Positions 13,896-64,000 of a stretch of DNA of 64,000 nt are shown here, piece by piece. The stretch comes from Narcine bancroftii. Lineage: Eukaryota. Numbering within the stretch: position 1 is the stretch's first letter; every line of letters begins with the position of its first letter. The notes under the pieces were generated by a model. The model made no database searches. It worked only from the letters and a program-made list of their open reading frames with translations, and was not told the origin of the DNA. The stretch lies in assembly GCF_036971445.1 (NCBI RefSeq), contig NC_091472.1, positions 129,084,001 to 129,148,000 of the forward strand, given 5' to 3'. A program made the translations under genes and the position numbers.

Positions 13896-15141
13896 GAGCT
13901 TGCAGGCGCCTCAGATTGAAGAGACTGCCATCCGTGCGGTACCGGATGTAAACAGCGACTTCATTGTTGGGGTCTTTCATGGCTTGGTTCAGCATCATGC
14001 TGAAGAAGATTGAAAAGAGGGTTGGTGCGAGAACACAGCCTTGCTTCACGCCATTGTTAATGGAGAAGGGTTCAGAGAGCTCATTGCTGTATCTGACCCG
14101 ACCTTGTTGGTCCACACCAAGACACACTTGTCCGTGAACTACTCTTTGCAGATGATGCCGCTTTAGTTGCCCATTCAGAGCCAGCTCTTCAGCGCTTGAC
14201 GTCCTGCTTTGCGGAAACTGCCAAAATGTTTGGCCTGGAAGTCAGCCTGAAGAAAACTGAGGTCCTCCATCAGCCAGCTCCCCACCATGACTACCAGCCC
14301 CCCCACATCTCCATCGGGCACACAAAACTCAAAACGGTCAACCAGTTTACCTATCTCGGCTGCACCATTTCATCAGATGCAAGGATCGACAATGAGATAG
14401 ACAACAGATTCGCCAAGGCAAATAGCGCCTTTGGAAGACTACACAAAAGAGTCTGGAAAAACAACCAACTGAAAAACCTCACAAAGATAAGCGTATACAG
14501 AGCCGTTGTCATACCCACACTCCTGTTCGGCTCTGAATCATGGGTCCTCTACCGGCACCACCTACGGCTCCTAGAACGCTTCCATCAGCGTTGTCTCCGC
14601 TCCATCCTCAACATCCATTGGAGCGCTTACACCCCTAACGTCGAAGTACTCGAGATGGCAGAGGTCGACAGCATCGAGTCCACGCTGCTGAAGATCCAGC
14701 TGCGCTGGATGGGTCACGTCTCCAGAATGGAGGACCATCGCCTTCCCAAGATCGTGTTATATGGCGAGCTCTCCACTGGCCACCGTGACAGAGGTGCACC
14801 AAAGAAAAGGTACAAGGACTGCCTAAAGAAATCTCTTGGTGCCTGCCACATTGACCACCGCCAGTGGGCTGATAACGCCTCAAACCGTGCATCTTGGCGC
14901 CTCACAGTTTGGCGGGCAGCAACCTCCTTTGAAGAAGACCGCAGAGCCCACCTCACTGACAAAAGGCAAAGGAGGAAAAACCCAACACCCAACCCCAACC
15001 AACAAATTTTCCCTTGCAACCGCTGCAATCGTGTCTGCCTGTCCCGCATCGGACTTGTCAGCCACAAACGAGCCTGCAGCTGACGTGGACTTTTTACCCC
15101 CTCCATAAATCTTCGTCCGCGAAGCCAAGCCAAAGAAGAAG
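13896..15141 (+). mobile_element. RTE-clade LINE, 5'-truncated with inverted 5' segment, in POLE intron 1
   Basis: Plus ORF 14196-15083 is the RT C-terminus (FADD just upstream, FTYLG, C-terminal CnrC...H). Segment 13896-14111 is the preceding RT part (GVKQGCVLAPTLF) on the minus strand. Tail GCCAAAGAAGAAG; TSD ACAATGAAAGT at 13885-13895 and 15142-15152. Confidence 0.93.
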
Positions 15142-16680: not shown

Positions 16681-16949
16681 CGTCTATTTCTGCACACTCT
16701 CACTCATTCAATCTAATTCTTACCTCAGATCGTAAATGATCTATTTGATCGCCTGACGATGAATAGCTGTCTTTTGGGTTTTTTTTTTATATAACATCGC
16801 TTCTGTTGATTTCCCAACCACAAACATTTAAAAAGTGACCCTTAGTTCCAGTACTTCCTGCATGAGGAAATATTCTATCCACAAACATTCTGTCAAGACT
16901 CCTTCCATGTGGGATTGATGGGGAGAATAATGAAAAACAGGAAAATATT

Positions 16950-18298
16950 CTTTTTCTGTCTTTGGCTTGGCTTCGCGGACGAAGATTTATGGAGGGATAA
17001 TGTCCACGTGTGCTGCAGACTCGTTGGTGACTGACAAGTCCGATGCGGGACAAGCAGGCACGGTTGAAAGGGAAAATTGGTGGGTTGGGGTTGGGTGTTG
17101 GGTTTTTCCTCCTTTCTCTTTTGTCAGTGAGGTGGGCTCTGAGGTCTTCTTCAAAGGAGGTTGCTGCCCACCGAACTGTGAGGTGCCAAGATGCACGGTT
17201 TGAGGCGATATCAGCCCACTGGTGGTGATCAATGTGGCAGGCACCAAGAGATTTCTTTAGGCAGTCCTTGTACCTCTTCTTTGGTGCACCTCTGACATGG
17301 TGGCCAGTGGAGAGCTCGCCATAGAACACGATCTTGGAAAGGCCATGGTCTTCCATTCTGGAGTCGTGACCCACCCAGCGCAGTTGGGTCTTCAGCAACA
17401 TGGATTCAATGCTTTCGGACTCTGCCAGCTCGAGTACTTCGATGTTGGTGATGAAGTCATTCCAATGAATGTTGAGAATGGAGCGGAGACAGCGCTGATG
17501 GAAGTGTACTAGGAGCCGTAGGTGATGCCGGTAGAGGACCCATGATTCGGAGCCGAACAGGAGCGTGGGTATGACAACGGCTCTGTACACGCTAATCTTT
17601 GTGTGTTTCTTCAGGTGGTTGTTTTTCCAAACTCTTTTGTGTAGTCTTCCAAAGGCGCTATTTGCCTTGGCGAGTCTGTTATCTATCTCTTTGTCGATCC
17701 TTGCATCAGATGAAATGGTGCAGCCAAGGTAGGTAAACTGGTTGACCGTTTTGAGTTTTATGTGCCCGATGGAGATATAGGGGGACTGGTAGTCATGGTG
17801 GGGGAAAATACTAGAGCGCCTCGGATGCCCCCCAAGTTCCTCAACATGGTTATCCAACTGCACGAAAACCAACAAGGTTGGGTCAGATACAGCAATGAGC
17901 TCTCCGAACCCGTCTCCATTGACAATGGCGTGAAGCAAGGCTGTGTTCTCGCACCAACCCTCTTTACTATCTTCTTCAGCATGATGCTGAAACAAGCCAT
18001 GAAAGACCTCAACAATGAAGACGCTGTTTACATCCGGTACTGCACAGATGGCATTCTCTTCAATCTGAGGCGCCTGCAAGCTCACACCAAAACACAAGAG
18101 CAACTTGTCCGTGAACTACATTTTGCAGACGATGCCGCTTTAGTTGCCCATTCAGAGCCAGCTCTCCAGCGCATGACGTCCTGTTTTGCGGAAACTGCCA
18201 AAATGTTTGGCCTGGAAGTCAGCCTGAAGAAAACTGAGGTTCTCCATCAGCCAGCTCCCCAACATGACTACCAGCCCCCCCACATCTCCATCGGGCAT
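16950..18298 (-). mobile_element. RTE-clade LINE with inverted 5' segment
   Basis: 3' part on the minus strand (16950-~17804); upstream RT part on the plus strand (~17805-18297; GVKQGC, FADD); TSD ACAGGAAAATATT at 16937-16949 and 18299-18311. Confidence 0.92.
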
Positions 18299-18714
18299 AC
18301 AGGAAAATATTACCCCTGTATAAAAGACCAGAAACCAAGACGGTTAAATCCACATATAATGCTTTATCAATGAATTCCTATCTTTTCACCAAGCAAAGTG
18401 AAAGTGCTGGAAATATGAAATAAAAATATTATAAATCATTACCCAATTATCTAATAATTGGGGAGGGGGAGAAAATTTGCTATTGTGTAGGAAGGAAATA
18501 AAAATCTGTTCCATTTCGAAGCATGGAGAGACCGAGCAAATAGCTTTACACAGAAAGAGCTATTTGACTTGTCTGTGTTGCGACATTTCTGAACCCACAG
18601 TTACTCAGTGGATCAGGCAGCATCCATGGTGAAAAAGATCATTGATTCTGGTCGATGATCAAAGTTGCTGAGTAAACCTGCCCTGTATTTACAGTGAACA
18701 TTGTTTTTATTATC

Positions 18715-26879: not shown

Positions 26880-28560
26880 AAAGGGAAATTGATATTGAGT
26901 AATGAGGAAATGGCCGAGACTGAACAGATATTTTGTGTCAGTCTTCATGTTGGAAGACACGTCCAGCATGCCAAAGAGTGGTGTTAGGGGTGTGAAGGGA
27001 GGTGAGGGCCTCGATAAAATAATTGTTACAAAAGAGATAGTGATGAGCAAACTAATGGGTTTGAAAGTGGACAAATCCCCTGGTCCTGATGGGATGTATC
27101 CCAGGGTACTGAAGGAAATGGTGGGAGTTATAGTTGATGCGTTGGTAGCCATTTACCAAAATTCTCTGGACTCTGGGCAGGTTTTGGCAGATTGGAAGAC
27201 AGCAAATGTCGCACCACTTTTTAAGAAGGGATGTAGGCATAAGACGGGTAACTATTGGCCAGGTAGCTTAATGTCTGTAATCGGGAAAATGCTTGAAGCT
27301 GTCATTAAGGATGACATAGCAAGACATTTAGAACAAAGGGGTTCCATGAGGCAGACGTAGCAAGGATTCAGAAAGGGCAGGTCTTGTATGACAAATGTGC
27401 TGGAGTTCTTTGAGGATATAATGGGTGTAGTTAATAGAGGGGAACAGGTTGATATTGTATATTTGGATTTCCAGAAGGCATTTGATAAGGTGCCACACAA
27501 GAAACTTATCAATAAGATACAGATGAATGGAGACGGGGGAAGTATATTGGAGTGGATTGAGGATTGGTTTACTGACAGAAAGTTGGGATAAATGGGTGTT
27601 TTTCTGATTGACAGATAGTGGGGTGCCACAGGGGTCAGTGCTGGGCCCGCAGCTGTTCACCATTTATATTGATAATTTGGAAGAGGAGACAAATTATACA
27701 GAGAATGTGGAGAGGCTGCAGAAGGATATAGTTAAGTTAGGTGAGTGGGCAAAGGTCTGGCAGATGGAGTACAACATTAGTAAATGTGAGGTCATCCACT
27801 TTGGTAGGAAAAATAGAAGAGCAGATTATTATTTACATGGTGAAAAACTGCAGCATGCTGTAGTGCAGAAGGACTTGGGAGAGCTTGTGCATAAATCACA
27901 AAAAGTTGGGTTGCAGGTACAACAGGCTATTAAGAAGGCAAATGGAATTGAATTCAAGAGCAGGGAAGTCATGCTGCAACTGTACAAGGTACTGGTGAGG
28001 CCGCACCTGGAGTACTGTGTGCAGTTCTGGTCTCAATGCTTGAGGAAGGATATACTGGCCTTGGAGGCAGTCCAGAGGAGGTTCACCAGGTTGATCCCGG
28101 AGATGAGGGGGTTTGACCTATGTGGAGAGATTAAATTACTTGAGATTATACTTACTCAAATTCAGAAGAATGAGAGGAGATCTTATAGAAACATATAAAA
28201 TTATGAAAGATAGAAGTAGGAAAATTGTTTTCACCGGTAGGTGACACGAGAACCAGGGGATACAGCTTCAATATTATGGGGAGTAGATTTCAGATGGAGA
28301 TAAGGAAAAACTGTTTTTCCCAGAGAGTAGTGAATCTATGGAATTCTCTGCCCAGGAAAGCAGTTGAGGCTACTTCATTTAGCATATTTAAGGTTTAGTT
28401 AGATTTTTACATAAAAAAGGAATTAAGGAATATGGGGAAAAGACAGATAGGTGGAGTTGAGTCAATAATCAGATCAGCCATGATCTTATTGAATGGCGAA
28501 CCTGGCAGATGAGCCAGATGGCCTACTCCTGCTCCTATTTCTTATTTTGTAATGTTCTTA
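26880..28560 (+). mobile_element. CR1-type LINE, 5'-truncated RT and 3' UTR
   Basis: KSPGPDGMYPRVLKE, YLDFQKAFDKVPH, GVPQGSVLGPQLF, LVRPHLEYCVQFW motifs; interrupted by stops and deletions. Confidence 0.93.
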
Positions 28561-35420: not shown

Positions 35421-37827
35421 GGCCTCATCGTTAATATTAACCGCTATCTGGTTGTAATGGTTTCTTTCACTCTGAGAATAACCTTGACATAAGGCTGCAA
35501 TGAATAGACATGGCCAAATACTAATATAATTTTTAATGATTTCCCAAAACATTTCACAGATGGATAACTGTTTTACTTGGAAAATGTGCTTTTGTGTAAG
35601 CTAGATGAAGCATTTACTGTTAACTGGATTTTTTTTTTAAACTGTTGGAGATCAACTAATCTTGCAACTATTGTCAACATTTTTTTTCAGTACCTTTGAT
35701 TTATAATTACAAGGTGGTATTTAATCAAGGGTGTATGTTGGGGATATAAATTGTTAAAACAAAGCAAGAATGCCTGTGATAACTGCAAAATATAGACTAC
35801 ATTTAGGAATCTTATTTAATGTAATTATTTAATATATTTGGTTTTAGTTTGCTTAGAATCTGTCAAATTTTAAAATAACATTTAAATGAATTTACCAATA
35901 TATCTAGAACCAGAAACTAATATTCCAAATTAATTGATAATGTAATGATAGTGTATTTGATTGTATAGTATTACATTTTTTTTTTAAATTAAACATACAG
36001 CATGGTAACAGGCCATTTTAGCCCATGATTCAGTGCTGCCTAATTTACATCCAATTGCACGTTTCGAACAATGGGGGAAAACTAGAGCTCCCATGGAAAA
36101 CCTATGCAGACACGGGGAGAACATACAAACTCCTTATAGAGAGCACAGGATGTGCTGAAAAGGTGTTGCCCCTTAAGAGAAAGTAGCAGACGATAATCAA
36201 ATTAATTTTGGATATAGTACCCAAGATCATCATGGATTAATTAAATTTGTCTTTGAACAATGAAATAAAGAAAAATAGAAGCAAAAGTAGGGAAAACGGT
36301 TTTTCTTTTCACCATTCTATAAGATCATGCCTGGTCAGATTTTGAGATCAATGCTAGTTTCTTACCAGATCTCTTAACTTGATTCCTCAATTTTTATTAT
36401 TTTTAATGAATTAACATTCTGTAAAGAATTTCAAAAATTCCCTCCTTTTTCAGTCTTTTTTCCCCAGTCCATGCCCTTTTCAAATTTGCCCATAAAGGAA
36501 GCTTGTTTACATGTTTCATGTCCCTGGAATACTTTATGTATCAATAGTTTATGTATAAATTAGATCAACTCTCATTCTTCTGAATTTCTTTATTCTGAAT
36601 ATCTATGATGGTGAAGATTTTAGGCCACAAAGGAGTTTGGGCTATGGGGAGAGAATAAAAATAGTCTTGCAGTCAAAAGTGTATCAACCATAATCTTATT
36701 TTCTTATTGAGTGGCAGAACAGGCGCAAGAGATCAATTGACTGGTGCTCCTATTTCTTATGTTCTTGATGTTTATGGTGAGTATATCTAGTTTGCTTTCC
36801 CAAACTATGAAGCTGCACAAATCATGAAGCACTTGTAGCAAGATGCTAGATTTACCTATCCCATGGCACAAATGCAGAGTGCTCTTTTTTATAAATAAAG
36901 ACAAATTATCCACTTTATAGCATTTTCTCAACAATTTCTGGTACAAAATGTTAATAATTTTAGAAATCTTTTAATTCAAAATTCTATTCTCCATGACTCG
37001 TATAAAATGATTTTTTTTTATAAAATGTATTTCTTTACAATTTTTTTATGTTAAGTTCTAATTGTCAATACAGAGTAAGTTCTCACATTGAGTGATTCAG
37101 TGTGTTGGCATATATTAAAGGCTTTAAGATATTTGATGTGTGTTTTGTTAAGCAATTACACTTCTTGGTCAAGGAAGACATAATGGCTCATGATTATCGT
37201 ACCAAAGCATACACATTGCTTCTCTTCAAAGGCATTTAACCATCATTTATTTTTGCATGATAGCATTTTGCTGATTTCATGTAGTCACTGAATCTTTGTT
37301 GTCTCTGGAGAAAGGTTCTGTGCAAACAATCCTTTCTGTTATGGGAATACGTGATGTTGTATACGGAGCTTCATTGTATGGTGTTTTAGTTTGGTGCCAT
37401 CTGAATAAAAATGCGTACAGCTTCATTCAAGTGAGGTTATTTTCAAAGAGAAAATGCACAACAAATTGGCAACGAGGATCAAAACAAAAATCCACATTCT
37501 GGACAACGGAATCTATGGGATTTTGAGTAAAAGGATGTTAGTGCTGAGAATTTTATTAAAAACTACTAATAATATAACACATTAAGTTAACTTAACCCCA
37601 ACTATGCGCGAATGTGTGTGTGTGTGTGTATGAGAGTGATACCCAAACCATTACAGCTTCGGCACAATTCTGGAAAGTCATTCCAAAGTTCAGCCTTAGA
37701 AATCCTGTGTTGAAACATAGACTTTTAAACTGATGCCCAGAAGTAATTACGAAGGAGGTGGGAGAGACTGAGTGACTGGACTGCTGAAAACTCACGAATC
37801 CTTGTCGTTTCTTGCTGAGAAATATCC

Positions 37828-38067
37828 TGTGGTGAAAGGCATTTACATAGATGTATGGACTGGCCAGTCCAAACCTCCCTGACTTACCCTAACTCCTCTT
37901 TGGCTCCTCCCTGGAATTCCCAATAAAGGTTGGCAAACCCAGACTTGCCCCCTCTTGCTCCTGTACCTGGAATCTGGCCAAGTAGTGTATCAGTAATGCT
38001 CATGTTTTTGGTAATTAAAGCGGCTTAATCACTCCATCATGTTGATATGATTATTGTGTGCTCCACA
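37828..38067 (+). repeat. 5' LTR (240 bp)
   Basis: Direct repeat of 42170-42399; about 16 substitutions plus 11-bp and 1-bp indels by hand count. Confidence 0.95.
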
Positions 38068-41000
38068 ATTTAATTACCAAAACAAAAGCCATGGAAACTC
38101 AGCATTCAGGACAAGGCAGCAACGATCAGGAAGATACCTGGTCATCCAGCCCACACACAGTGGAGTCGACCCAGTCATGTGGTCCCCTGGGGTCTGCATC
38201 ATCTCTGCAGCAGGTAATGGGAGGTTTGCCAGCCGACTGTGCTCACGATTGAACCCAGGGATCCCAACGCAGATGTTACCTTTGAGAGGTGGCTGCATGA
38301 GATGCAGACGTTCATGTGCTGCCACAACCTAAGGGATGCTGAAGATAAGTACGATATCCTGTTTGCATTCATGGGCAATCGGGCGTTTCAAATAATTAGA
38401 GACTGCTGAACATACGATGAGGTGACGGCCCTGCTGCAGAAGCAGTATGGGACCCTTACAAACCTAATATTCGCGAAGTACAAATTAATGATCTGGCGTC
38501 AAGGCTCTGGGGAACCCTTCGCACAGTTCGCGTGGGCATTGAGAGAAATGATTAGAGCCTGCAGGTGTACTGCGGTGAGTATGCCGATGAGCTGATGCGG
38601 GACAGACTGCTGACAAACATGCTATCAACCCAGGTCTGTCAAAGACTCCTGGAAAAAGGTAACTGCACATTGCAAGAAGTACTGGACTTGAGGGAGGTGA
38701 CAGAGACTGCAGTGCAAAGCTATGAGGCTTACACCGCCGGCGGTCTGGCATCCACATGGGGAACGAGGGTGCCGCCACGTTGAGGTATGGCACCGTCAGC
38801 AGCGGTGGCCGCAGCCAGCAAGTGCGGGTTCTGACCAGGCACCCCTGGAAGTCCTACCCGGCCAGGAACGCAGGGTGCTCAAATTGCAAAAAGAAAGGAC
38901 ACTATGTGAAAGTGTTCCGGGGGCAGCCCACTACCAGCAGTACCACATGCAATCCGAGGGATGGGTCACTATCTTTGGGGGAGCGGTCACCAAGACGACA
39001 ATCACTAACATCTCTTCTGGCTTCTGATCAGCGATCGCTAACTTCACCTCCGGTCACAGCCATGTGCAAGAACTGGGGGCAGGCATCTTCTGAGGTGCCA
39101 AGTCCAACATATTACCGACAGGAATGGTACAATGGTGACCGAATTGGACCTAACTCTGGCCTCCCTGATGCTAGATCAAAACAAGCCTCACCAGCTAGTT
39201 CGATTCGATGATGAACATTAAGGTAAACGGTTGCATCACGGGTTGTTCGTTTGACACGGAGCACCGAAAGTTTTATCCACCCGGACTTAATAAAGCGCTG
39301 TGCACAGAAGATGTCTCCAGAAAAGTGCCAAATATCCCTGGCATCTAAAGCCCAGTCCACAAAGGTGTGTGGGTACTGACTGGTAAACGTAAGGGTGCGG
39401 GGCAGGGAGTACAGGGATTTCAAAATCATGGTGATGCCCAAACTCTGCGCACTGGTTATCTTGGGGTTAGACTTCCAGTGTCAGCTGGAAAGAGTAATGA
39501 TGCAGTTTGACGGTCTGCACACCTCGATCACAGTGCAGAATGAGGAATTCAGCTCAGCCAATGAGAGTAAGCTGGGCAATATGTGTGGATTGTCCACCCT
39601 TCGGGTCCCTCTGCCTCTGCTATTCGAGCACTTATCAGAGAATTGCAGACCTATGGCTGCCAAAAACAGGAGATATCGCCCAGAGGACAGATGTTTCATT
39701 AAAACATTAGAGGCTGTTGGCCAAAGGCATCATGGAGCCCAGCAATAGCTCCTGGTGATCTCAGGTGTTGGTGTGGGGGGGGGGGGGGGGTGTTGGGAGA
39801 AGAACCGGATGGTAATAGACTTCAGCCAGAATGTGAATAGATTTACGTTACTGGATGCCTACCCCCTACCCAGAATCGCCGACATGGGGTCAATATAGGG
39901 TCTTCTCCACCATAGTCCTTAAGTCGGCACACCATCAGATCCCAACCCACCCAGAGCACAGGCCCTATATGCCTTTTGAAGCCGATGGCCGACTATCAGT
40001 TACCAGTTACGCAGGGTGCCATTTGGTCTGACGAATGGGGTATTGGTGTTCCAAAGGGAGATGGGCTGCATGGTGGACGATCACAAGCTAAAGGGAACGT
40101 TCCCATATTTGGATAACGTCACCAAATGTGGCCATGACATGGAGGAACACGATACGAATCTAAGGGAATTCCTCGCCACAGCAAAAACCCTAAACCTGAC
40201 GTATAATCAGAAGAAGTGTACGTTCCGCACTTCACAGCTGGCGATACTAGGATACATGGTGGAGGGAGGGATCATGTCCCCGGACCCCGAGAGAATGTGC
40301 CTCCTTAGGGAACTACCATTGCCCCAGAACCTGAAAGCCCTGAAAAGGTGCCTCAGATTCTTTTCCTATTATGCCCAATGGGTCCTCAATTACATAGTCA
40401 AGGCTCGGCCATGAAGACAACAAACTTTCTCCCATCAGTGGAACCTTGTAAAGCCTTCGAGGGCATCAAGGATGAGATTGCCAAGGTGGCGATGCATGCC
40501 ATTGATGAATCCATCCTATTCCAAGTGGAAAGTGATGCCTCTGATGTTGCCCTAGCAGCCACGCTGAATCAGGCAGGCAGGCCAGTGGCATTTTTTTTAG
40601 AACACCCAAGGGCCCAGAACTCAGGCACTTGGCCATTGAGAAAAAGGCCCAGGCTAAAGTGGAAGCTGTGTGCCACTGGAGGCATTATTTGGCTGGTAGA
40701 CAATTTACCCTGCTGACAGACCAGAGGGGCGTTGTATTTATGTTTAATAACAAACAGCGGGGTAAAATAAAAAAATAAGATTAGGGAGTGGAGAATTGAA
40801 CTCTCCATGTACAATTTTGAGATCCTATACCGGCCTGGGAAGCTTAATGAGCTACCCAATGTTCTGTCCCGGGGAACATGCATCAGCGCACAAGTGAATT
40901 GTCTGGAGCTTTGACAAGCTCTGCCACCCCAGGGTCACAAGGCTGTCTCACTTTGTGAGGGCTAGAAATTTACCCTACTCAGTTGAGATTTGGGAACTGT

Positions 41001-42169
41001 GCCACAACTGCTCGGTGTGTGCTGAATGCAAGCCGCATTTTTACAGACCGGATAGAGCCCAACTGATTAAGGAAACCTGTCCCTTCGAACGTCTTAGTAT
41101 GGACTTCAAGGGTCCCCTCCCATCCAATAACAGGAATCTCAACTTCCTGAATATAGTGGATGAGTATTCCCGGTTCCCGTTTGTTATCCCTTGTCTGGAC
41201 ATGACTGCAGCCACGGTCATCAAGGCACTCCAGACCATATTCACGATGTTTGGATATCCCAGCTACATACACAATGACAGGGGTTCCTCCTTCATGAGTC
41301 AGGAGCTGCAACAGTACCTACAGGCAGTGGGGATAGCCATGAACAGAACTACTAGCCACAACCCCCGCAGGAATGGGCAAGTGGAGAGGGAGAACGGTAC
41401 AATCTGGAGACCAATTCTGTTGCCCTCACGTAAAAAGGGATCCCTGTCTCCCAGTGGCAAGAGGTACTACTGGAAATGCTGCTTGCTACCAGGTCCCTGC
41501 TGTGCATGGCTACAAATACCATCACCCAAGAGATACTCTTCTTCTCCTAGGAGGTCAGCATCCGGAACCACTATGCCAATCTGGCTAACGACACCAGGGC
41601 TGGTATTTCTTCACAGACATATTAGACCCCACAAGACAGATCCCCTGGTGGAATGAGTGCATCTGGTACATGCAAACCCACAATATGCATTTGTGCGGTA
41701 CCACGATGGGAGGAGGACATGGTGTCAGTACAAGACCTGACCCGTGCAGGGTACACTAATACTGATCAGGTAATCCCAGAAGAACCAGATGGTCAATTGA
41801 CACAGCACCCATCCACATCCCAGGGTTTTGATGTATTCTCTCCACCACCCCCCCCCCTCACCCAGTACCAGTCAAGCACTGGCGGCAGTCAATCCCACAG
41901 AGATCTCGCCAGCAAGGAATCCACCCCAACAGGAAGCGAAGGGCTCTGTAACCAAAATTCCACCGACATAGGTACACAGTCCTGTGAGTTCAACACGGGA
42001 ACAACAGGGGCCTCGCCCAGCACCTCAGAAGTCATAGCGGATCACGAGACCACTGGACGAGCTGAACCTGTGATGAACACTATGAACAATGTATATATGT
42101 AATAAAGTACAGTATATGCTCCACGTCGCCACATCACCCTGCCGGGTTTTATCTCAAAGAAGGGGTGAA

Positions 42170-42399
42170 TGTGGTGAAAGGCATTTGCATAGATGTATGG
42201 ACTGGCCAGTCCGAACCTCCCTGACCTTCCCTAACTCCTCCCTGGAATTCCCAATAAAGGCTGGCAAACCCAGACTTGCCCCCTCTTGCTCCTGTACCTG
42301 GAACCTGGCTAAGTCGTGCATCAGTAATGATCAGGTTTTTTGGTAATTAAAGCATTTTAATCACTCCATCATGTTGATGTGATTATTGTGTGTTCCACA
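42170..42399 (+). repeat. 3' LTR (230 bp)
   Basis: Direct repeat of 37828-38067, preceded by the PPT and followed by the TSD. Confidence 0.95.
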
Positions 42400-42445
42400 T
42401 ATCCTTTTGGATGAATGGTTGTCACAACTCCCCTTTCCTTGTGTA

Positions 42446-42606
42446 GGGGAAACAAAATAAGTGACTTCCATGATGCTACCAAAACCTAGGCATAGGTCAG
42501 TCAAAATGACCATCAACTTGGTCATGGGGAAACAAAATAAGTGACTTCCATGATGCTACCAAAACCTCGGCATAGGTCAGTCAAAATGACCATCAACTTG
42601 GTCATG
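42446..42606. repeat. Tandem duplication, 2 x 80 bp
   Basis: ggggaaacaaaataagtgacttcc...caacttggtcat repeated with one mismatch (cctagg/cctcgg). Confidence 0.95.
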
Positions 42607-44428: not shown

Positions 44429-44669
44429 GACCGCGCGTGCCGCCACCCGGCCGTTGGCCGCCGCGTGCTCGGGCCTCGTGCTGAGGTGACGCAGTTCCAG
44501 CTCGGGGACCGCGCGTGCCGCCACCCGGCCGTTGGCCGCCGCGTGCTCGGGCCTCGTGCTGAGGTGACGCAGTTCCAGCTCGGGGACCGCGCGTGCCGCC
44601 ACCCGGCCGTTGGCCGCCGCGTGCTCGGGCCTCGTGCTGAGGTGACGCAGTTCCAGCTCGGGGACCGCG
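44429..44669. repeat. GC-rich tandem repeat, 3 x 78 bp plus 7 nt, in a CpG island
   Basis: Unit gaccgcgcgtgccgccacccggccgttggccgccgcgtgctcgggcctcgtgctgaggtgacgcagttccagctcggg starts at 44429, 44507 and 44585; copies appear identical. Confidence 0.97.
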
Positions 44670-44779
44670 ACGGCCGTGGGCGCGGCGAGAGCTTTCGCGC
44701 TGCGCAGTCGGTGAGACCAACTGTCCGGTGTTTTATTTATTATTTTTTATATATCAGTTGTTGTGCCATCTTTTCGAGA

Positions 44780-50581: not shown

Positions 50582-53500
50582 CTTTTTTTGAAAAGTTTAT
50601 TTAAAATTTTACAAAATACAAATGCAAAATACAAAAAAAATTCAAGTCTACCCCCTATACCCCCCACCCCAATATCCCACCCCTTACTATCCCTCCATCC
50701 CTCCACCCCTTCGAGCTTAACATACATAAAGTATTTATAAACAAACAGTGGGTTAGGTTGCAATACATCAATTCAACAATCCAAACAAGAATTTTAAAAA
50801 TATTACTTAACATCTAAATTCATACATTTCAAATATGGAGTCCACATTTTTTCAAAAAAAGAGTAATTATTTTGCAAATTATATGTAATTTTTTCTAAAC
50901 ATAAACATGATTGATGTTTATTATGCCATCTCTGTATACTCAACTCCACATCATTTTTCCAGGTGACTGCTATACATTTCCTAGCCACTGCCAAACTTAA
51001 TCGAATAAATGCAATCCAAAATTTATCCAAGCGTGCTGTTAATGGATTCATATAATCAAATAAACACAACCATAGAACAACATACAAATCTATTTGGAAT
51101 AAATCTCGCAAAAATTTTGTAATCTTGTCCCAAAAAGGTTTAACCTTTACACAATTCCATGCAGAATGAACCAAACTACCTATCTGATCTCCACACCGAA
51201 AACACAAATCAGAATCACTAGACCCAAATCTCTTTAAATTTTCAGGAGTTAAATATAACTGATGCAGAAAATTATAATTAACTAAACTATAATGCACATT
51301 AACTAATTTTGTAATGCTATACAAACATAGATCTGACCATTCTTCCTCAAAAATAGAAGTAGATAACTCCTGTTCCCATTTATATCTTATTCTCAATACA
51401 CCTACCTCCTTCATTTTTACCTGTAACAACGAATACATTTTGGAAACAAACCCTTTCTTTCCCTTATCCATAAGTAATATTTCAAACTTTGATTGTGTTG
51501 GTAATATAATTTCCTGACCAAAACAATTCTTTTAAAAAAATCACATACTTGATGATAAGCAATGTATTTTGTGATATTCTAAATTTCTCTCCAAGCCTAT
51601 CAAATGAATGAAATAAACCTGCCTCAAAATAATCTTCAATTAATATCAAACCTTTTGAGTCCCATTCCTTCAAATAAAGATTATGAATAGAGGAAGGAAT
51701 CAACTGATTTTGATATAGCAGAGTTTTAATTGAACATACATCCTTCGAACCTATAAATTGGTTCCATTGACTCCATACTTTAAGCAAATAACTCAATACG
51801 GGTAACTTGTATGTTTGTAAAAGCAATAAATTCCATTTGTATTTAAAATGGTATATTGAACTTTCCCATATCTGATGTAAGCCCACATTGGTGGTTGATC
51901 AATATCAATAACAAACAATCTACTAATACTGTGCTGCCTGGTAATAATTTTGAAAATGTGGTAACTGAAGACCTCCCAAATCATATGCCCATGTCAATTT
52001 TTGCATTGATACGAGATAATTTACCTTTCCACAAAAAAGAACGTATCACTTTATTTAATTCTTTTTAAAATTTCCCCGCTCAGGACATGGGATTGATTGA
52101 AACAGATACTGAATACGTGGATATATATTAATTTTGATACAATTTACCCAACCAATTAATATTAATAGTAAATCCTTCCATCGATTTAAGTCAGACAATC
52201 TTATTTAACAAAGGTAAATAATTTAAACCATATAAATTCTTATCTTTCTTTGGCTTGGCTTCGCGGACGAAGATTTATGGAGGGGGTAAAAAGTCCACGT
52301 CAGCTGCAGACTCGTTTGTGGCCGACAAGTCCGATGCGGGACAGGCAGACACGATTGCAGCGGTTGCAGGGGAAAATTGGTTGGTTGGGGATGGGTGTTG
52401 GGTTTTTCCTCCTTTGCCTTTTGTCAGTGAGGTAAGCTCTGCGGTCTTCTTCAAAGGAGGTTGCTGCCCGCCAAACTGTGAGGCGCCAAGATGCACGGTT
52501 TGAGGCGATATCAGCCCACTGGCGGTAGTCAATGTGGCAGGCACCAAGAGATTTCTTTAGGCAGTCCTTGTACCTTTTCTTTGGTGCACCTCTGTCACGG
52601 TGGCCAGTGGAGAGCTCGCCATATAACACGATCTTGGGAAGGCGATGGTCCTCCATTCTGGAGACGTGACCCATCCAGCGCAGCTGGATCTTCAGCAGCG
52701 TGGACTCGATGCTGTCGACCTCTGCCATCTCGAGTACTTCGACGTTAGGGATGTAAGCGCTCCAATGGATGTTGAGGATGGAGCGGAGACAACGCTGGTG
52801 GAAGCGTTCTAGGAGCCGTAGGTGGTGCCGGTAGAGGACCCATGATTCGGAGCCGAACAGGAGTGTGGGTATGACAACGGCTCTGTATACGCTTATCTTT
52901 GTGAGGTTTTTCAGTTGGTTGTTTTTCCAGACTCTTTTGTGTAGTCTTCCAAAGGCGCTATTTGCCTTGGCGAGTCTGTTGTCTATCTCATTGTCGATCC
53001 TTGCATCTGATGAAATGGTGCAGCCGAGATAGGTAAACTGGTTGACCGTTTTGAGTTTTGTGTGCCCGATGGAGATGTGGGGGGGCTGGTAATCATGGTG
53101 GGGAGCTGGCTGATGGAGGACCTCAGTTTTCTTCAGGCTGACTTCCAGGCCAAACATTTTGGCAGTTTCCGCAAAGCAGGACGTCAAGCGCTGAAGAGCT
53201 GGCTCTGAATGGGCAACTAATGCCCATTCAAATTCTTATACTACTTATCAATAATTACACCTAAATACTTAATCTTATCTGACCATTTAAATTTAGTAAT
53301 TTGCATACAATCTGAATAGTCCTCATCAGATATAGGTAATATCTCACTTTTATCCCAATTTACTTTATACCCCAACATTGATCCATAAAATTTTAACAAA
53401 TCCTGTAAATGTTCTAAAGAATTCTTAGGTTTAGATAATATATTAACACATCGTCTGCAAATAAATTAATTTTGTACTCTCATTGCCTAACCGTAATATC

Positions 53501-60244: not shown

Positions 60245-62468
60245 TTTTTTAAACTTTATTAATAACACATACAAAATAAATGTTTACGGAAAGTACACTA
60301 AAATACTACTAATACATTTTAACTCTCACTCCCTCCCATAACCCCCTTATACAAATCTTTATATACCGAAGGACCAAAAAAAAACAAAAATTATAAGTAC
60401 TGCTGTGGAGTATATTACATCCTTAACAGAATTTTTTTTAAAATCATAATAAAACTACTTTTAAATCTATGTCTAACCCCATACATTTCAGATAAGGAGT
60501 CCACATTTTAATTAAAAAAAAAAAATCATTATGTAAATTGTTTTTTTTCCTAAATATATACAGGATTTTAATTCAGAATTCCATCTTTGAATATTCAATT
60601 CTAAATCATTCTTCCAAGTAACTGCAATACATTTCCGGGCTACTGCCAAAGCTAACCGAATAAATACCAGTTGAAAATTTTCAAGCCTCAAACTGGTTGT
60701 TAAGATTGTAAAATACCCCATTAGGAAAAATAACGGATCAAAAGTCAATTTAAATTTAAATAAACCTTCCAAAAATTCCATAATTCTCTGCCAAAAAGGC
60801 TTAACTTTTTCACATGACCAAACTGAATGTAAAAAAAAAAGTACCAACTTGCTTTCCACAATGAAAACACAGATCTGATGATTTAAAGCCATATCTTTTT
60901 AATTTCTCAGGAGTCAAATATAACTGATGTAAAAAAATTATAATTTACTTAACTATATCTCACATTAATTAATTTACATTATCTTCACACAATGTCATCC
61001 ATTCTTCCGAAGATAACAATATAGATAAATCCTCTTCCCATTTATTTTTCATTTTACATAAATCTGATTTAATCATTTTTTCTTGTAATAAAGCATACAT
61101 TTCAGAAATAAAACCTTTTCTCAATCCACCCTCAATTAAAATTACAAAATTGGGTTTTTTAGGTAAACTTAGTTCCCATCCAAAGTTATCCAATAACATA
61201 GCTCGCACTTGATAATATACAAACAAGGAGTGAGGTAATATTCCAAATTTTTCCTGAAGTCGAGCAAAAGAAAGGAACTGACCTACCTCGAAGCAATCTT
61301 CCACTAATTTAATGCCTTTCATGCCCCAATTTTTCAAGTAATAATTATTTACTGAAAAAAAGATTAATTTATTCTGGAAAAAATGGTGCCTTCACTGAAA
61401 TTTTGCCTTTACTACCAGTAATCTGATCTCTAACATACCAAATCTTCATCAAGTGCTGCAATACAAGTATATTATAGTTTTGTAAAAGAGAAGGGTTCCA
61501 TTTATAAATAAATTGATTAATAGAAAATTCAGCAATTTGTGCTAACTCAACTTTAGTCCAAATTGGAGGTTGATGTATGTCAAACATTCTATTAATAAAC
61601 TTTAATTGAGCAGCCTCATAATGATTCTGAAAGTGTGGTAATTGAAGTCCACCTAATGCATACTTCCATGTCCATTTTTGTAAAGACGCTCCAGCTAATT
61701 TACCTTTCCATAAAAATAATCTCTCTGCTGCATTTAAATCTTTTAAAGAAAGGTTTAAGAAGTACACAAGGAATAGACTGAAAAAGATATTGAATACATG
61801 GAAAAACATTCATTTTGACACAATTTACTTGTCCTATCAAAGTTAATGGTAAGTCTTTCCATTTATTCAAATCCGATTTCATTTTATTTAATAAAGGTAC
61901 ATAATTCAATTTATATACATTTTGATATTCAACATCAACCATTACTCCTAAATATTTAATTTTATTAGTCCATCGAAACCATGTAATCTGTTTACAATCT
62001 AAATAATCCTCATTTGAAATCGGTAATATTTCACTTTTATCCCAATCAACCTTATATCCTGACATTTCTCCATACTGTACCAGACGAAATTGAAGCTTTT
62101 CCAAGGATTCTTTAGGATGTGTTAAATAAATTAACACATTATCCACAGACAAATTAATCTTGTATTTCTCATTACTAATTTTAATTCCCTGAATAATAAT
62201 ATCCTGTCTAATAGGTTGGGTCAGTGGCTCAATAAGGCTAGCGACAATGGACAACCTTGCCTCGTTGACTTAGTCAAATTGAATGAAGATGAAATTTGTC
62301 CATTAGTCACCACCTTAGCTGACGCATTTTTATATAAAGCCTTCACCCAACCAGTGAAGAGTGGTCCAAATTTAAATCTTTCCAACACTTCAATTAGAAA
62401 TTTCTGCTCTATCCGATCAAAAGCCTTTTCAGCATCTAGTGCTACTATAATTGGTTGATTGGGTTGCT
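60245..62468 (-). mobile_element. L1/Tx1-like LINE ORF2 remnant
   Basis: LDAEKAFDR, RQGCPLS, SGYKVDWDKSE, GGLQLPHF, LAVARKCIAVTWK motifs with frameshifts. Confidence 0.9.
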
Positions 62469-64000
62469 TCTTTTTTTTAAAATTTTTTTATTTTTCACAC
62501 CATAAATCACATTGATCAAGATACATACATTTTCCTTTTCAAATATATACAGTGTCGTTTTCTTCCCCCCCCCCTTCTTCCCATCCCACCCTCCCTACCT
62601 CCCCTCCCATTCATTTAAAATACAGAATCTAAGATACATTAAACCAGTCAAATAATGTTGTCGCTCAATAAAAATAAACAAGAAGTTCCACTGAGTCAAT
62701 TCTTTTCATTTCCTTCTCCTTCTGTCATTTTAGGTGGCAGATGTCCCCGGTAGGTTTTCGCTATTGTGTTTCATGTATGGCTCCCATATTTGTTCAAATA
62801 TTGCAATATTATTTCTTAAATTATATGTTATTTTTTCTAATGGAATACATTTATTCATTTCTATATACCATTGATGTATTCTCAAGTTATCTTCTAATTT
62901 CCAGCCTGACCTAATACATTTTTTTGCTACGGCTAGGGCTATCCTAACAAATCTTTTTTTGCACCATCCAAATCAAGTCCAAATTCTTTGTTTTTTATGT
63001 TGCTTAGAAGGAAGATCTCTGGGTTTTTTTGGTATATTGCTTTCTGTAATTTTATTTAATATCTGGTTTAGATCTTCCCAAAATTTTTTCACTTTCTCAC
63101 ACGTCCAGATTGCATGAATTGTTGTTCCCATTTCTTTTTTACAACGAAAACATCTGTCAGATACTGTTGGGTCCCCTTTATTTAACTTTTGAGGTGTAAT
63201 GTATAGTCTGTGTATCCAGTTATATTGTATCATACGTAACCTCGTGTTTATTGTATTTCTCATAGTTCCAGAGTGTAACTTCTCCCATGTTTCCTTCTTT
63301 ATCTTTATGTTTAAATCTTGTTCCCATTTTTGTTTAGTTTTACCATTTGTTTCCTCATTCTCCTTTTCTTGCAGTTTAATATACATATTTGTTATAAATT
63401 TTTTGATTATCATTGTATCTGTAATCACATATTCAAAATTACTTCCCTCTGGTAACCTCAGACTGCTTCCCAATTTGTCCTTCAAGTAGGATTTCAGTTC
63501 GTAGTATGCCAACACTGTATCTTGAGTTATATTATATTTATTCTTCATTTGTTCAAAGGATAGTAATTTATTTCCTGAAAAACAATTTTCTATTCTTTTG
63601 ATCCCTTTTTTCTCCCATTCTCTAAAGGAAAGGTTATTTATTGTAAAAGGGATTAACTGATTTTGCGTCAGTAATAGTTTTGGTAATTGGTAATTTGTTT
63701 TATTCCTTTCTACATGAATCTTCTTCCAAATATTGAGCAGATGATGTAATACTGGAGAATTCCTACGTTGTACCAATTTTTCATCCCATTTATATAATAT
63801 ATGTTCAGGTATCTTCTACCCTATTTTATCTAGTTCTAATCTAGTCCAATCTGGCTTTTCCCTTGTTTGATAAAAATCTGATAGGTATCTTAATTGTGCG
63901 GCTCTATAATAATTTTTAAAGTTTGGCAGTTGTAAGCCTCCTTGTTTATACCATTCTGTTAATTTATCTAGTGCTATCCTCGGTTTCCCCCCTTTCCATA
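62469..64000 (-). mobile_element. Younger L1/Tx1-like LINE 3' part, nested in the older L1 and running off the window
   Basis: Poly-T end at ~62470; 267-aa open segment with CFRCKKEMGTTIHAIWTC. Confidence 0.9.

Follow-up and report, generated by a model that had tools for sequence, protein, structure and literature searches.

Structure of the retrotransposon

The window, by which we mean the whole 64-kb stretch of DNA that was analysed, contains a full-length but decayed Ty3/Gypsy retrotransposon at 37828–42399, all features of which lie on the + strand. Its 5′ LTR (37828–38067) is 240 bp long, begins with TG and ends with CA, and aligns with a 3′ LTR of 230 bp at 42170–42399 so that 213 of 229 aligned bases are identical, with two gaps (93% alike). 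The left copy of a target-site duplication, TATCC, is found at 37823–37827 and the identical 5 bases recur directly 3′ of the 3′ LTR at 42400–42404, while a purine run at 42157–42169, immediately 5′ of the 3′ LTR, forms the polypurine tract. Comparison with four public runs, used as contigs, revealed pile-ups of loose ends at both edges of the 5′ LTR; the many different flanks seen at 37828 and 38067, in runs from three organisms, show that the family is multicopy. The ends of the element are thus fixed by the TATCC duplication, by the polypurine tract before 42170 and by the loose-end pile-ups at 37828 and 38067.

Between the LTRs lies a broken gag-pol region (38091–42102, ends approximate) with matches to the Pfam domains RVT_1, RT_RNaseH and rve. 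It encodes a gag with a zinc knuckle, a protease, a reverse transcriptase (RT) with the motif YLDN, RNase H and integrase, and is interrupted, relative to the intact relative P0022, by 8 or more stop codons and several shifts of frame. Assignment to Ty3/Gypsy follows from the TG...CA LTR pair, the target duplication and the polypurine tract, together with the order protease, RT, RNase H, integrase and an RT that is closest to Ty3. The best solved-structure match of another relative, P0053, is Ty3 Gag-Pol (E = 2e-78).

A self-complementary junction in place of a tRNA primer site

The 5′ LTR ends in CA at 38067, a single spacer base follows at 38068 and no TGG occurs within 13 nt of the LTR end, as the initial annotation had observed. 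The next 14 bases, 38069–38082, are the exact reverse complement of 38006–38019 within the LTR (14 bp), with a gap of 49 nt between the two arms; that annotation had described the same pairing and spacing, and every one of its coordinates is right. The LTR segment is also retained in the 3′ LTR, where the LTR comparison located it. We designate 38006–38019 as the predicted self-primer, 38069–38082 as a predicted primer-binding site of self-complementary type, and the intervening loop (38020–38068; the rest of R, U5 and the spacer base) as the predicted template of the first cDNA. ARAGORN identified 0 tRNA genes in the 64-kb window, and the only Rfam matches to the window were 4 weak ones that fell far short of the cut-off. 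When the 20 nt after the LTR were shuffled, 1 in 20,000 shuffles reached 14 bp, and 5 of 12,748 sampled window positions had a complement of at least 14 bp, a figure that may include the 38069–38082 site itself.

The duplex dominates the predicted fold of the whole junction region, for which the z score is only −2.0. The two hairpins that had been proposed to fill the loop fared less well: the letters are there, but the TAATCA/TGATTA stem appears only when the loop is folded alone and is lost from the fold of the whole region, and the TTGTG/CACAA stem is predicted in neither. The window loop folds no better than shuffled versions of itself (253 of 500 were at least as stable), loop hairpins beat shuffles in one of eight clade members, and the loop varies among family copies in the public runs and ranges from 24 to 61 nt among relatives, which leaves the hairpins unsupported as a conserved part of the structure. 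Side duplexes of the pretzel type beat shuffles in 1 of 16 tests within the clade, in what is a weak test, with a yield of 1 in 4 for two control chromoviruses.

Conservation and covariation among relatives

Of 631 candidates from a search with the integrase, 576 proteins reached E ≤1e-20 (120 listed), and a search with gag found 54. Among the matches listed, the named sources are rays, sharks, Trichuris, Trichinella, crustaceans, Seison, a spider, Xenia, Actinostola, Clavelina and Mnemiopsis. The ESM Atlas gave generic RT clusters only. Clade DNA was collected from metagenomes (28 loci, 15 of them close), from contaminated genome bins (10 loci) and through searches of five such bins; two scans of viral contigs found no clade member. 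L029, L030, L031, L032 and L036 are whole eukaryote-type retrotransposons inside GTDB bacterial genome bins, which amounts to contamination, and the bins G001–G003 hold many host-like contigs with Gypsy elements.

Ten distinct elements have a readable 5′ junction; further clade loci are truncated or rearranged there and could not be scored (L001–L003, L005–L011, L013, L014, L033–L035, L042, L046, L048, L074, L075 and L077). A perfect duplex of 13–18 bp is present in eight of the ten (the window element, L012, L029, L004, L031, L036, L030 and L032), six of these having been first picked by a scan that required TTTA(A/T)T after CA and two by eye. The remaining two, L050 and L076, are decayed and keep remnants of pairing only, and in L044, a second copy of the L031 family, pairing is down to 10 bp. 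In all eight families the duplex begins one base past the CA of the LTR and TGG is absent, with no TGG primer site 0–3 nt after the LTR (0/8). The LTR end was set by both LTRs in the window element, L031 and L036, by the polypurine tract and the start of gag in four circular contigs, and by position only in L012.

The letters of the two arms differ between families while the pairing is kept. All 104 in-register pairs at positions 1–13 of the eight families are Watson–Crick, at least two pair types occur at 9 of the 13 positions, and pairing then falls away, from seven of eight families at position 14 to two of eight at position 15. An arm of one family mostly fails to match those of the others. 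When the arms were aligned automatically, with L030 partly out of register, 10 of 14 pairs changed on both sides; the covariation score of 0.58 was reached by 0 of 500 shuffles, a control that ignores kinship, and compares with 0.02–0.11 in slid controls. A compensatory pair is also seen within the family, in public run X6 from another organism, where position 38079 is T in ~99% of the depth (80 contigs) and its partner 38009 is A in two loose-end rows, no single molecule showing both changes. Among the 40 differences listed of 173 in this run, 10 rows fall in the loop and the arms hold only the compensatory change. Conservation among relatives, on which the interpretation of the initial annotation hinged, is thus present in eight of the ten scoreable elements and is accompanied by compensatory changes.

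A search of five genomes for the pattern hexamer, gap, CA and primer site gave 80 matches against 51 for a control pattern, and of 30 loci fetched from it 3 had a duplex of at least 9 bp, all of them already known. A dispersed repeat in G001 and G003 (e.g. L079, L084, L091) often matches the hexamer–gap pattern and lacks a long duplex. The acidic residues of RNase H are invariant in 28 of 28 relatives.

Control elements were taken from 20 regions of the same bins, 16 of which are other Gypsy elements, 10 with both LTRs. From their domain order and primer motif we take them to be Mag/SURL-like and Gmr1-like. All 10 with both LTRs have TGG within 0–3 nt of the LTR and none has a duplex of the clade type. 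As positive controls, three chromodomain-bearing elements from viral contigs were put through the identical script, and two of the three self-pair over 9–10 bp, starting two bases after the LTR and enclosing loops of 87–96 nt. L121 and L124, filed as viral contigs, display Tf1-type self-pairing of 10 and 9 bp, respectively. Covariation, the missing tRNA-type site and these controls together support, at the level of sequence, the earlier proposal of a Gypsy element that would prime itself independently of tRNA.

A poly(A)-signal-like hexamer at the end of the LTR arm

The initial annotation had pointed out an ATTAAA within the primer segment. It lies at 38014–38019, where it would form the 3′ end of the predicted primer, and the observation extends well beyond this copy: a hexamer of this kind ends the arm in all eight families of this largely scan-selected set (ATTAAA in four, AATAAA in three and AGTAAA in one, with one extra A in two cases), making it the most conserved feature of the junction, at a distance of 23–60 nt from the LTR end. 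The G+T content at +15 to +45 after the window ATTAAA is 0.63, compared with 0.47 behind an AATAAA at 37922. A G+T-rich stretch is expected downstream of a poly(A) signal that is used, and the window ATTAAA is likely to be such a signal.

The AATAAA just mentioned (37922–37927) lies 140 nt from the LTR end and is present in other family copies too, as seen in the loose ends; L029 and L032 likewise have a further upstream AATAAA, and L031 has a second one inside its loop. A TATA-like word ~30 nt before the arm is missing from all eight families, whereas the chromovirus L124 has a TATA box ~30 nt before its arm. In L121 an AATAAA is located apart from the primer arm. The bases 3′ of the hexamer are mostly GCC or GCT (L004, L006, L007, L012, L013, L029, L031, L032, L034 and L036) and often begin a small hairpin at the predicted cut, a tendency that is not significant alone.

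Phylogenetic position of the clade

The initial annotation saw no chromodomain after the integrase, and none is present in the integrase pieces of the window or in any of 28 full-length relatives; Chromo and SH3_Tf2-1 domains were both absent from these 28, and a chromodomain was detected in all three control chromoviruses. A search for Chromo in three host-contaminated genomes produced no match, and its controls gave none either. In an IQ-TREE tree of RT-RNase H, built from 32 of 56 rows (near-duplicates and decayed rows, including L076, being omitted), the clade (100/100) and the chromoviruses (98/97) form separate groups; the deep branches are unresolved, and the chromoviruses comprise three sequences only, with no named Tf1, sushi or Cigr-1 sequence among the rows. 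The AU test rejects nesting of the clade with the two self-primed chromoviruses (p-AU 0.015); it does not reject a sister position to the three chromoviruses (p-AU 0.054) or one to four TGG-primed elements (p-AU 0.24). An integrase FastTree groups the clade with L118 and two chromoviruses (0.998), and the next matches of the gag N-terminus are TGG-primed elements. The suggestion that the lineage may be separate from Tf1/sushi is supported by the tree and by the absence of a chromodomain, within the limit set by the sister position that is not rejected. Sequence tests make the clade Tf1-like, domain content and the tree place it outside Tf1/sushi, and it is likely to be independent of that group.

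A model for self-priming and its alternatives

We propose that the elements form a chromodomain-less clade that would start reverse transcription from a primer cut from the 5′ end of its own RNA and ending at a poly(A) signal, a reading to which, from sequence comparison, we assign a probability of about 0.7. Transcription would start at or slightly before 38006, a position suggested by the sharp end of the pairing after 13–18 bp. The RNA 5′ end would fold back onto 38069–38082, the element's RNase H would cut directly behind the hexamer by analogy with Tf1, and RT would copy the 49-nt loop, the cDNA of which would jump to the RNA 3′ end via the 10–25 bases between the hexamer and the poly(A) site. 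Plus-strand synthesis would then copy the primer back into the primer site and keep the arms perfectly matched; such copying of the primer into DNA would account for a match that is perfect and yet stops abruptly. While paired, the 5′ hexamer would be inaccessible to the polyadenylation machinery; the 3′ copy, without a nearby partner, could work. The right end of an LTR is determined by the primer site, and the constant one-base spacer of the eight families would arise because the primer site sets this end. Given that TGG is missing and that the letters of the primer site track the element's own LTR, the LTR arm is the simplest candidate for the primer.

Several observations count against this model. 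If the AATAAA at 37922 were used in the 3′ LTR, the RNA would stop before the region needed for the jump, and its conservation is a real difficulty. The lack of a TATA-like word in front of the arm also tells against a start at this point. Further points on this side are the side duplexes required in Tf1, of which the weak test gave no consistent sign, and the merely partial pairing in L050, L076 and L044.

The primer might alternatively be the arm's second copy, close to the 3′ end of the RNA, within a genome circle or between two packaged RNAs, and cut behind the hexamer; the long RNA itself would then prime, R could be long and the 5′ copy would serve as template only. Such a scheme would draw on the presence of the arm in both LTRs, on its poly(A)-like hexamer, which would put it near the RNA 3′ end, and on the start at the arm having no TATA-like word to support it. 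We know of no precedent for priming of this type and consider it distinctly unlikely, as every predicted structure pairs the primer site with the near copy, 24–61 nt away, and as pairing ends after 13–18 bp in the manner of a short primer when a long one could extend further. The helix could also merely hide the 5′ poly(A) signal, a masking comparable to that by the HIV-1 poly(A) hairpin, and leave priming to an unknown host RNA, for example an internal tRNA fragment. That the hexamer is inside the duplex in all eight families would suit this explanation, and half-tRNA priming is reported for Copia lineages (PMC6317226). It seems to us improbable all the same, given that masking requires neither perfect pairing nor a fixed one-base spacing, that a TGG site is absent, and that the eight primer sites differ, each following its own LTR rather than a common RNA. 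As for a chance inverted repeat or local duplication in one decayed copy, the arm is an A+T-rich 14-mer and some window positions do reach 14 bp, but this explanation was rejected as having a negligible probability, the same geometry with changed letters being found in 7 other families.

A further alternative concerns only the origin of the system and is compatible with priming from the RNA 5′ end: self-priming may have been inherited from a common ancestor with Tf1/sushi, the chromodomain being lost later. The sister position to the chromoviruses that survives the AU test, the integrase grouping and the unresolved deep branches would all accommodate this history. We judge it rather unlikely, in view of the rejection of nesting, the lower cost of a sister position to the four TGG-primed elements (3.2 log-likelihood units versus 15.8), the absence of Chromo and SH3_Tf2-1 from all 28 relatives, the resemblance of the gag N-terminus to TGG-primed elements and the separation of AATAAA from the primer in L121. 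We put forward only tentatively the broader idea of a separately evolved, animal-wide system in which a single helix would first mask the poly(A) signal at the 5′ end and then, once cut directly behind it, prime, with many members using a YxDN RT, in which asparagine replaces the second catalytic aspartate; were this so, the choice of the RNA 3′ end and the start of reverse transcription would be tied to the same six bases.

Relation to known systems

Proof of self-priming exists for one yeast element, and the mechanism usually counts as a mark of Tf1/sushi chromoviruses. In Tf1 the primer site pairs with the first 11 bases, and the RNase H cut falls between bases 11 and 12 (PMC7175516); this site is present as a DNA copy on about half of the cDNA (PMC11042837), and side duplexes around it are required (PMC10085805). 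The mechanism has been described for Tf1, Tf2, Tj1 and the Tf1/sushi group (PMC4600332, PMC10085805). Like these elements, Tf1 and Tf2 being from Schizosaccharomyces pombe, the clade is Ty3/Gypsy, lacks a tRNA site and has an LTR-complementary site with a predicted RNase H cut. It differs from Tf1/sushi in having neither chromodomain nor SH3_Tf2-1 and in its separate place in the tree, and from Tf1 in its duplex (13–18 bp against 11), in the poly(A)-like hexamer that ends its arm, in the YxDN motif of many members and in that consistent pretzel side duplexes were not seen in a weak test; its loops, of 24–61 nt, contrast with the 87–96 nt of the two control chromoviruses. Sushi is reported to have AATAAA close to the LTR end (PMC3601003), and a similar overlap of hexamer and primer may occur in fish chromoviruses.

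Self-priming has also been predicted for Tcn1 chromoviruses and for the plant Copia TAR (Houba/Osr-1) lineage, on sequence evidence of the same kind as ours (at least 10 bp, 0–5 bp after the LTR), and the TAR case shows that it arose more than once (PMC6317226). Those lineages and hosts are different, and a link to the poly(A) signal is not mentioned in the available text of that paper (PMC6317226). Unconventional priming in the absence of a tRNA site has been proposed for the fungal GalEa, with its Conserved Hairpin Site (PMC5445492), and for dictyostelid Skipper, with its pyrimidine tract (PMC5006619); as far as the available text of these sources goes, both lack a complement in the LTR, whereas that of the clade is perfect. 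The bivalve TRIMs, too, are described as having neither tRNA site nor LTR complement (PMC6934838). The Kuafuorterviruses (Troyka) have RT motifs of IADD, VADD or LADD and measure 5–6 kb (PMC11673190), against YxDN or YxDD and about 4–4.6 kb in the clade, which places the clade outside that group as it is delimited in the text available.

The protein matches of the clade include one tunicate member (P0145). Cigr-1 has LTRs of ~245 bp and one ORF of ~1,200 codons, and resembles the clade in this size, which makes it a candidate relative only. The Cigr-1 clade, from Ciona intestinalis, is classed under Mag (PMC6238403 supplement), and the available portions of three sources name the Cigr clades without mention of priming (PMC6238403, PMC8556966, PMC3670739). 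A published reference alignment contained no Cigr-1 row and none of four motifs typical of our clade (GVTNG, SPWR, DYSQT and WRAQ), which gaps in such an alignment can hide, and PMC2774666 yielded no match. The literature covered, to which Repbase, GyDB, Dfam and most older papers did not belong, holds no description of the clade's primer site or of YLDN. Entries called self-primed do exist in Repbase, so prior notice is possible.

If the proposed model is true, tRNA priming can be given up by Ty3/Gypsy elements of a further lineage, and through a different design; the protein relatives of this clade come from comb jellies, cnidarians, nematodes, arthropods, a tunicate, sharks and rays. Ending the primer in the poly(A) signal would be one way for an element whose R is very short to escape cleavage of its RNA at the 5′ LTR, and the leader of 80–100 nt would offer a small, direct substrate for RNase H cleavage of an RNA duplex. 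Annotation tools that require a tRNA site would score elements of the clade as incomplete.

Reverse transcriptase motif and other features of the window

Among 172 proteins of the clade search (P0001–P0172), the catalytic motif of RT is YxDN in 81, YxDD in 37 and of another form in 4, the region being missing from 50. YxDN is present in intact ORFs too, and in the window the motif falls within 39980–40411, near 40312. A tree of 15 rows requires at least 3 changes between YxDN and YxDD. A change of the YxDN type is reported to block transposition of Ty1, with partial rescue by changes in RNase H (PMC2148107), and natural YxDN RTs bear on the reasons for both this block and its rescue.

A Narcine bancroftii protein record is 100% identical to the integrase query over 62% of that query and extends into a neighbouring ORF of the window, which makes this ray the probable host. 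A public Narcine bancroftii gene model, P0092 (41093–41380 and 44423–45082), begins within the element's integrase and runs on through a ubiquitin-like exon to FIIND, UPA and CARD domains; the probable explanation is an artefact of gene prediction upstream of a CARD8/NLRP1-like gene. Within the ubiquitin-like ORF, 44429–44676 consists of three G+C-rich tandem units of 78 nt, and two tandem copies of 80 nt, 99% alike, lie shortly past the 3′ LTR at 42446–42605. Fragments of non-LTR retrotransposons, classed by eye as RTE-, CR1- and L1/Tx1-like, occur elsewhere in the window at 14097–15083, 16787–18373, 27608–28198, 50803–53235 and 61700–63815.
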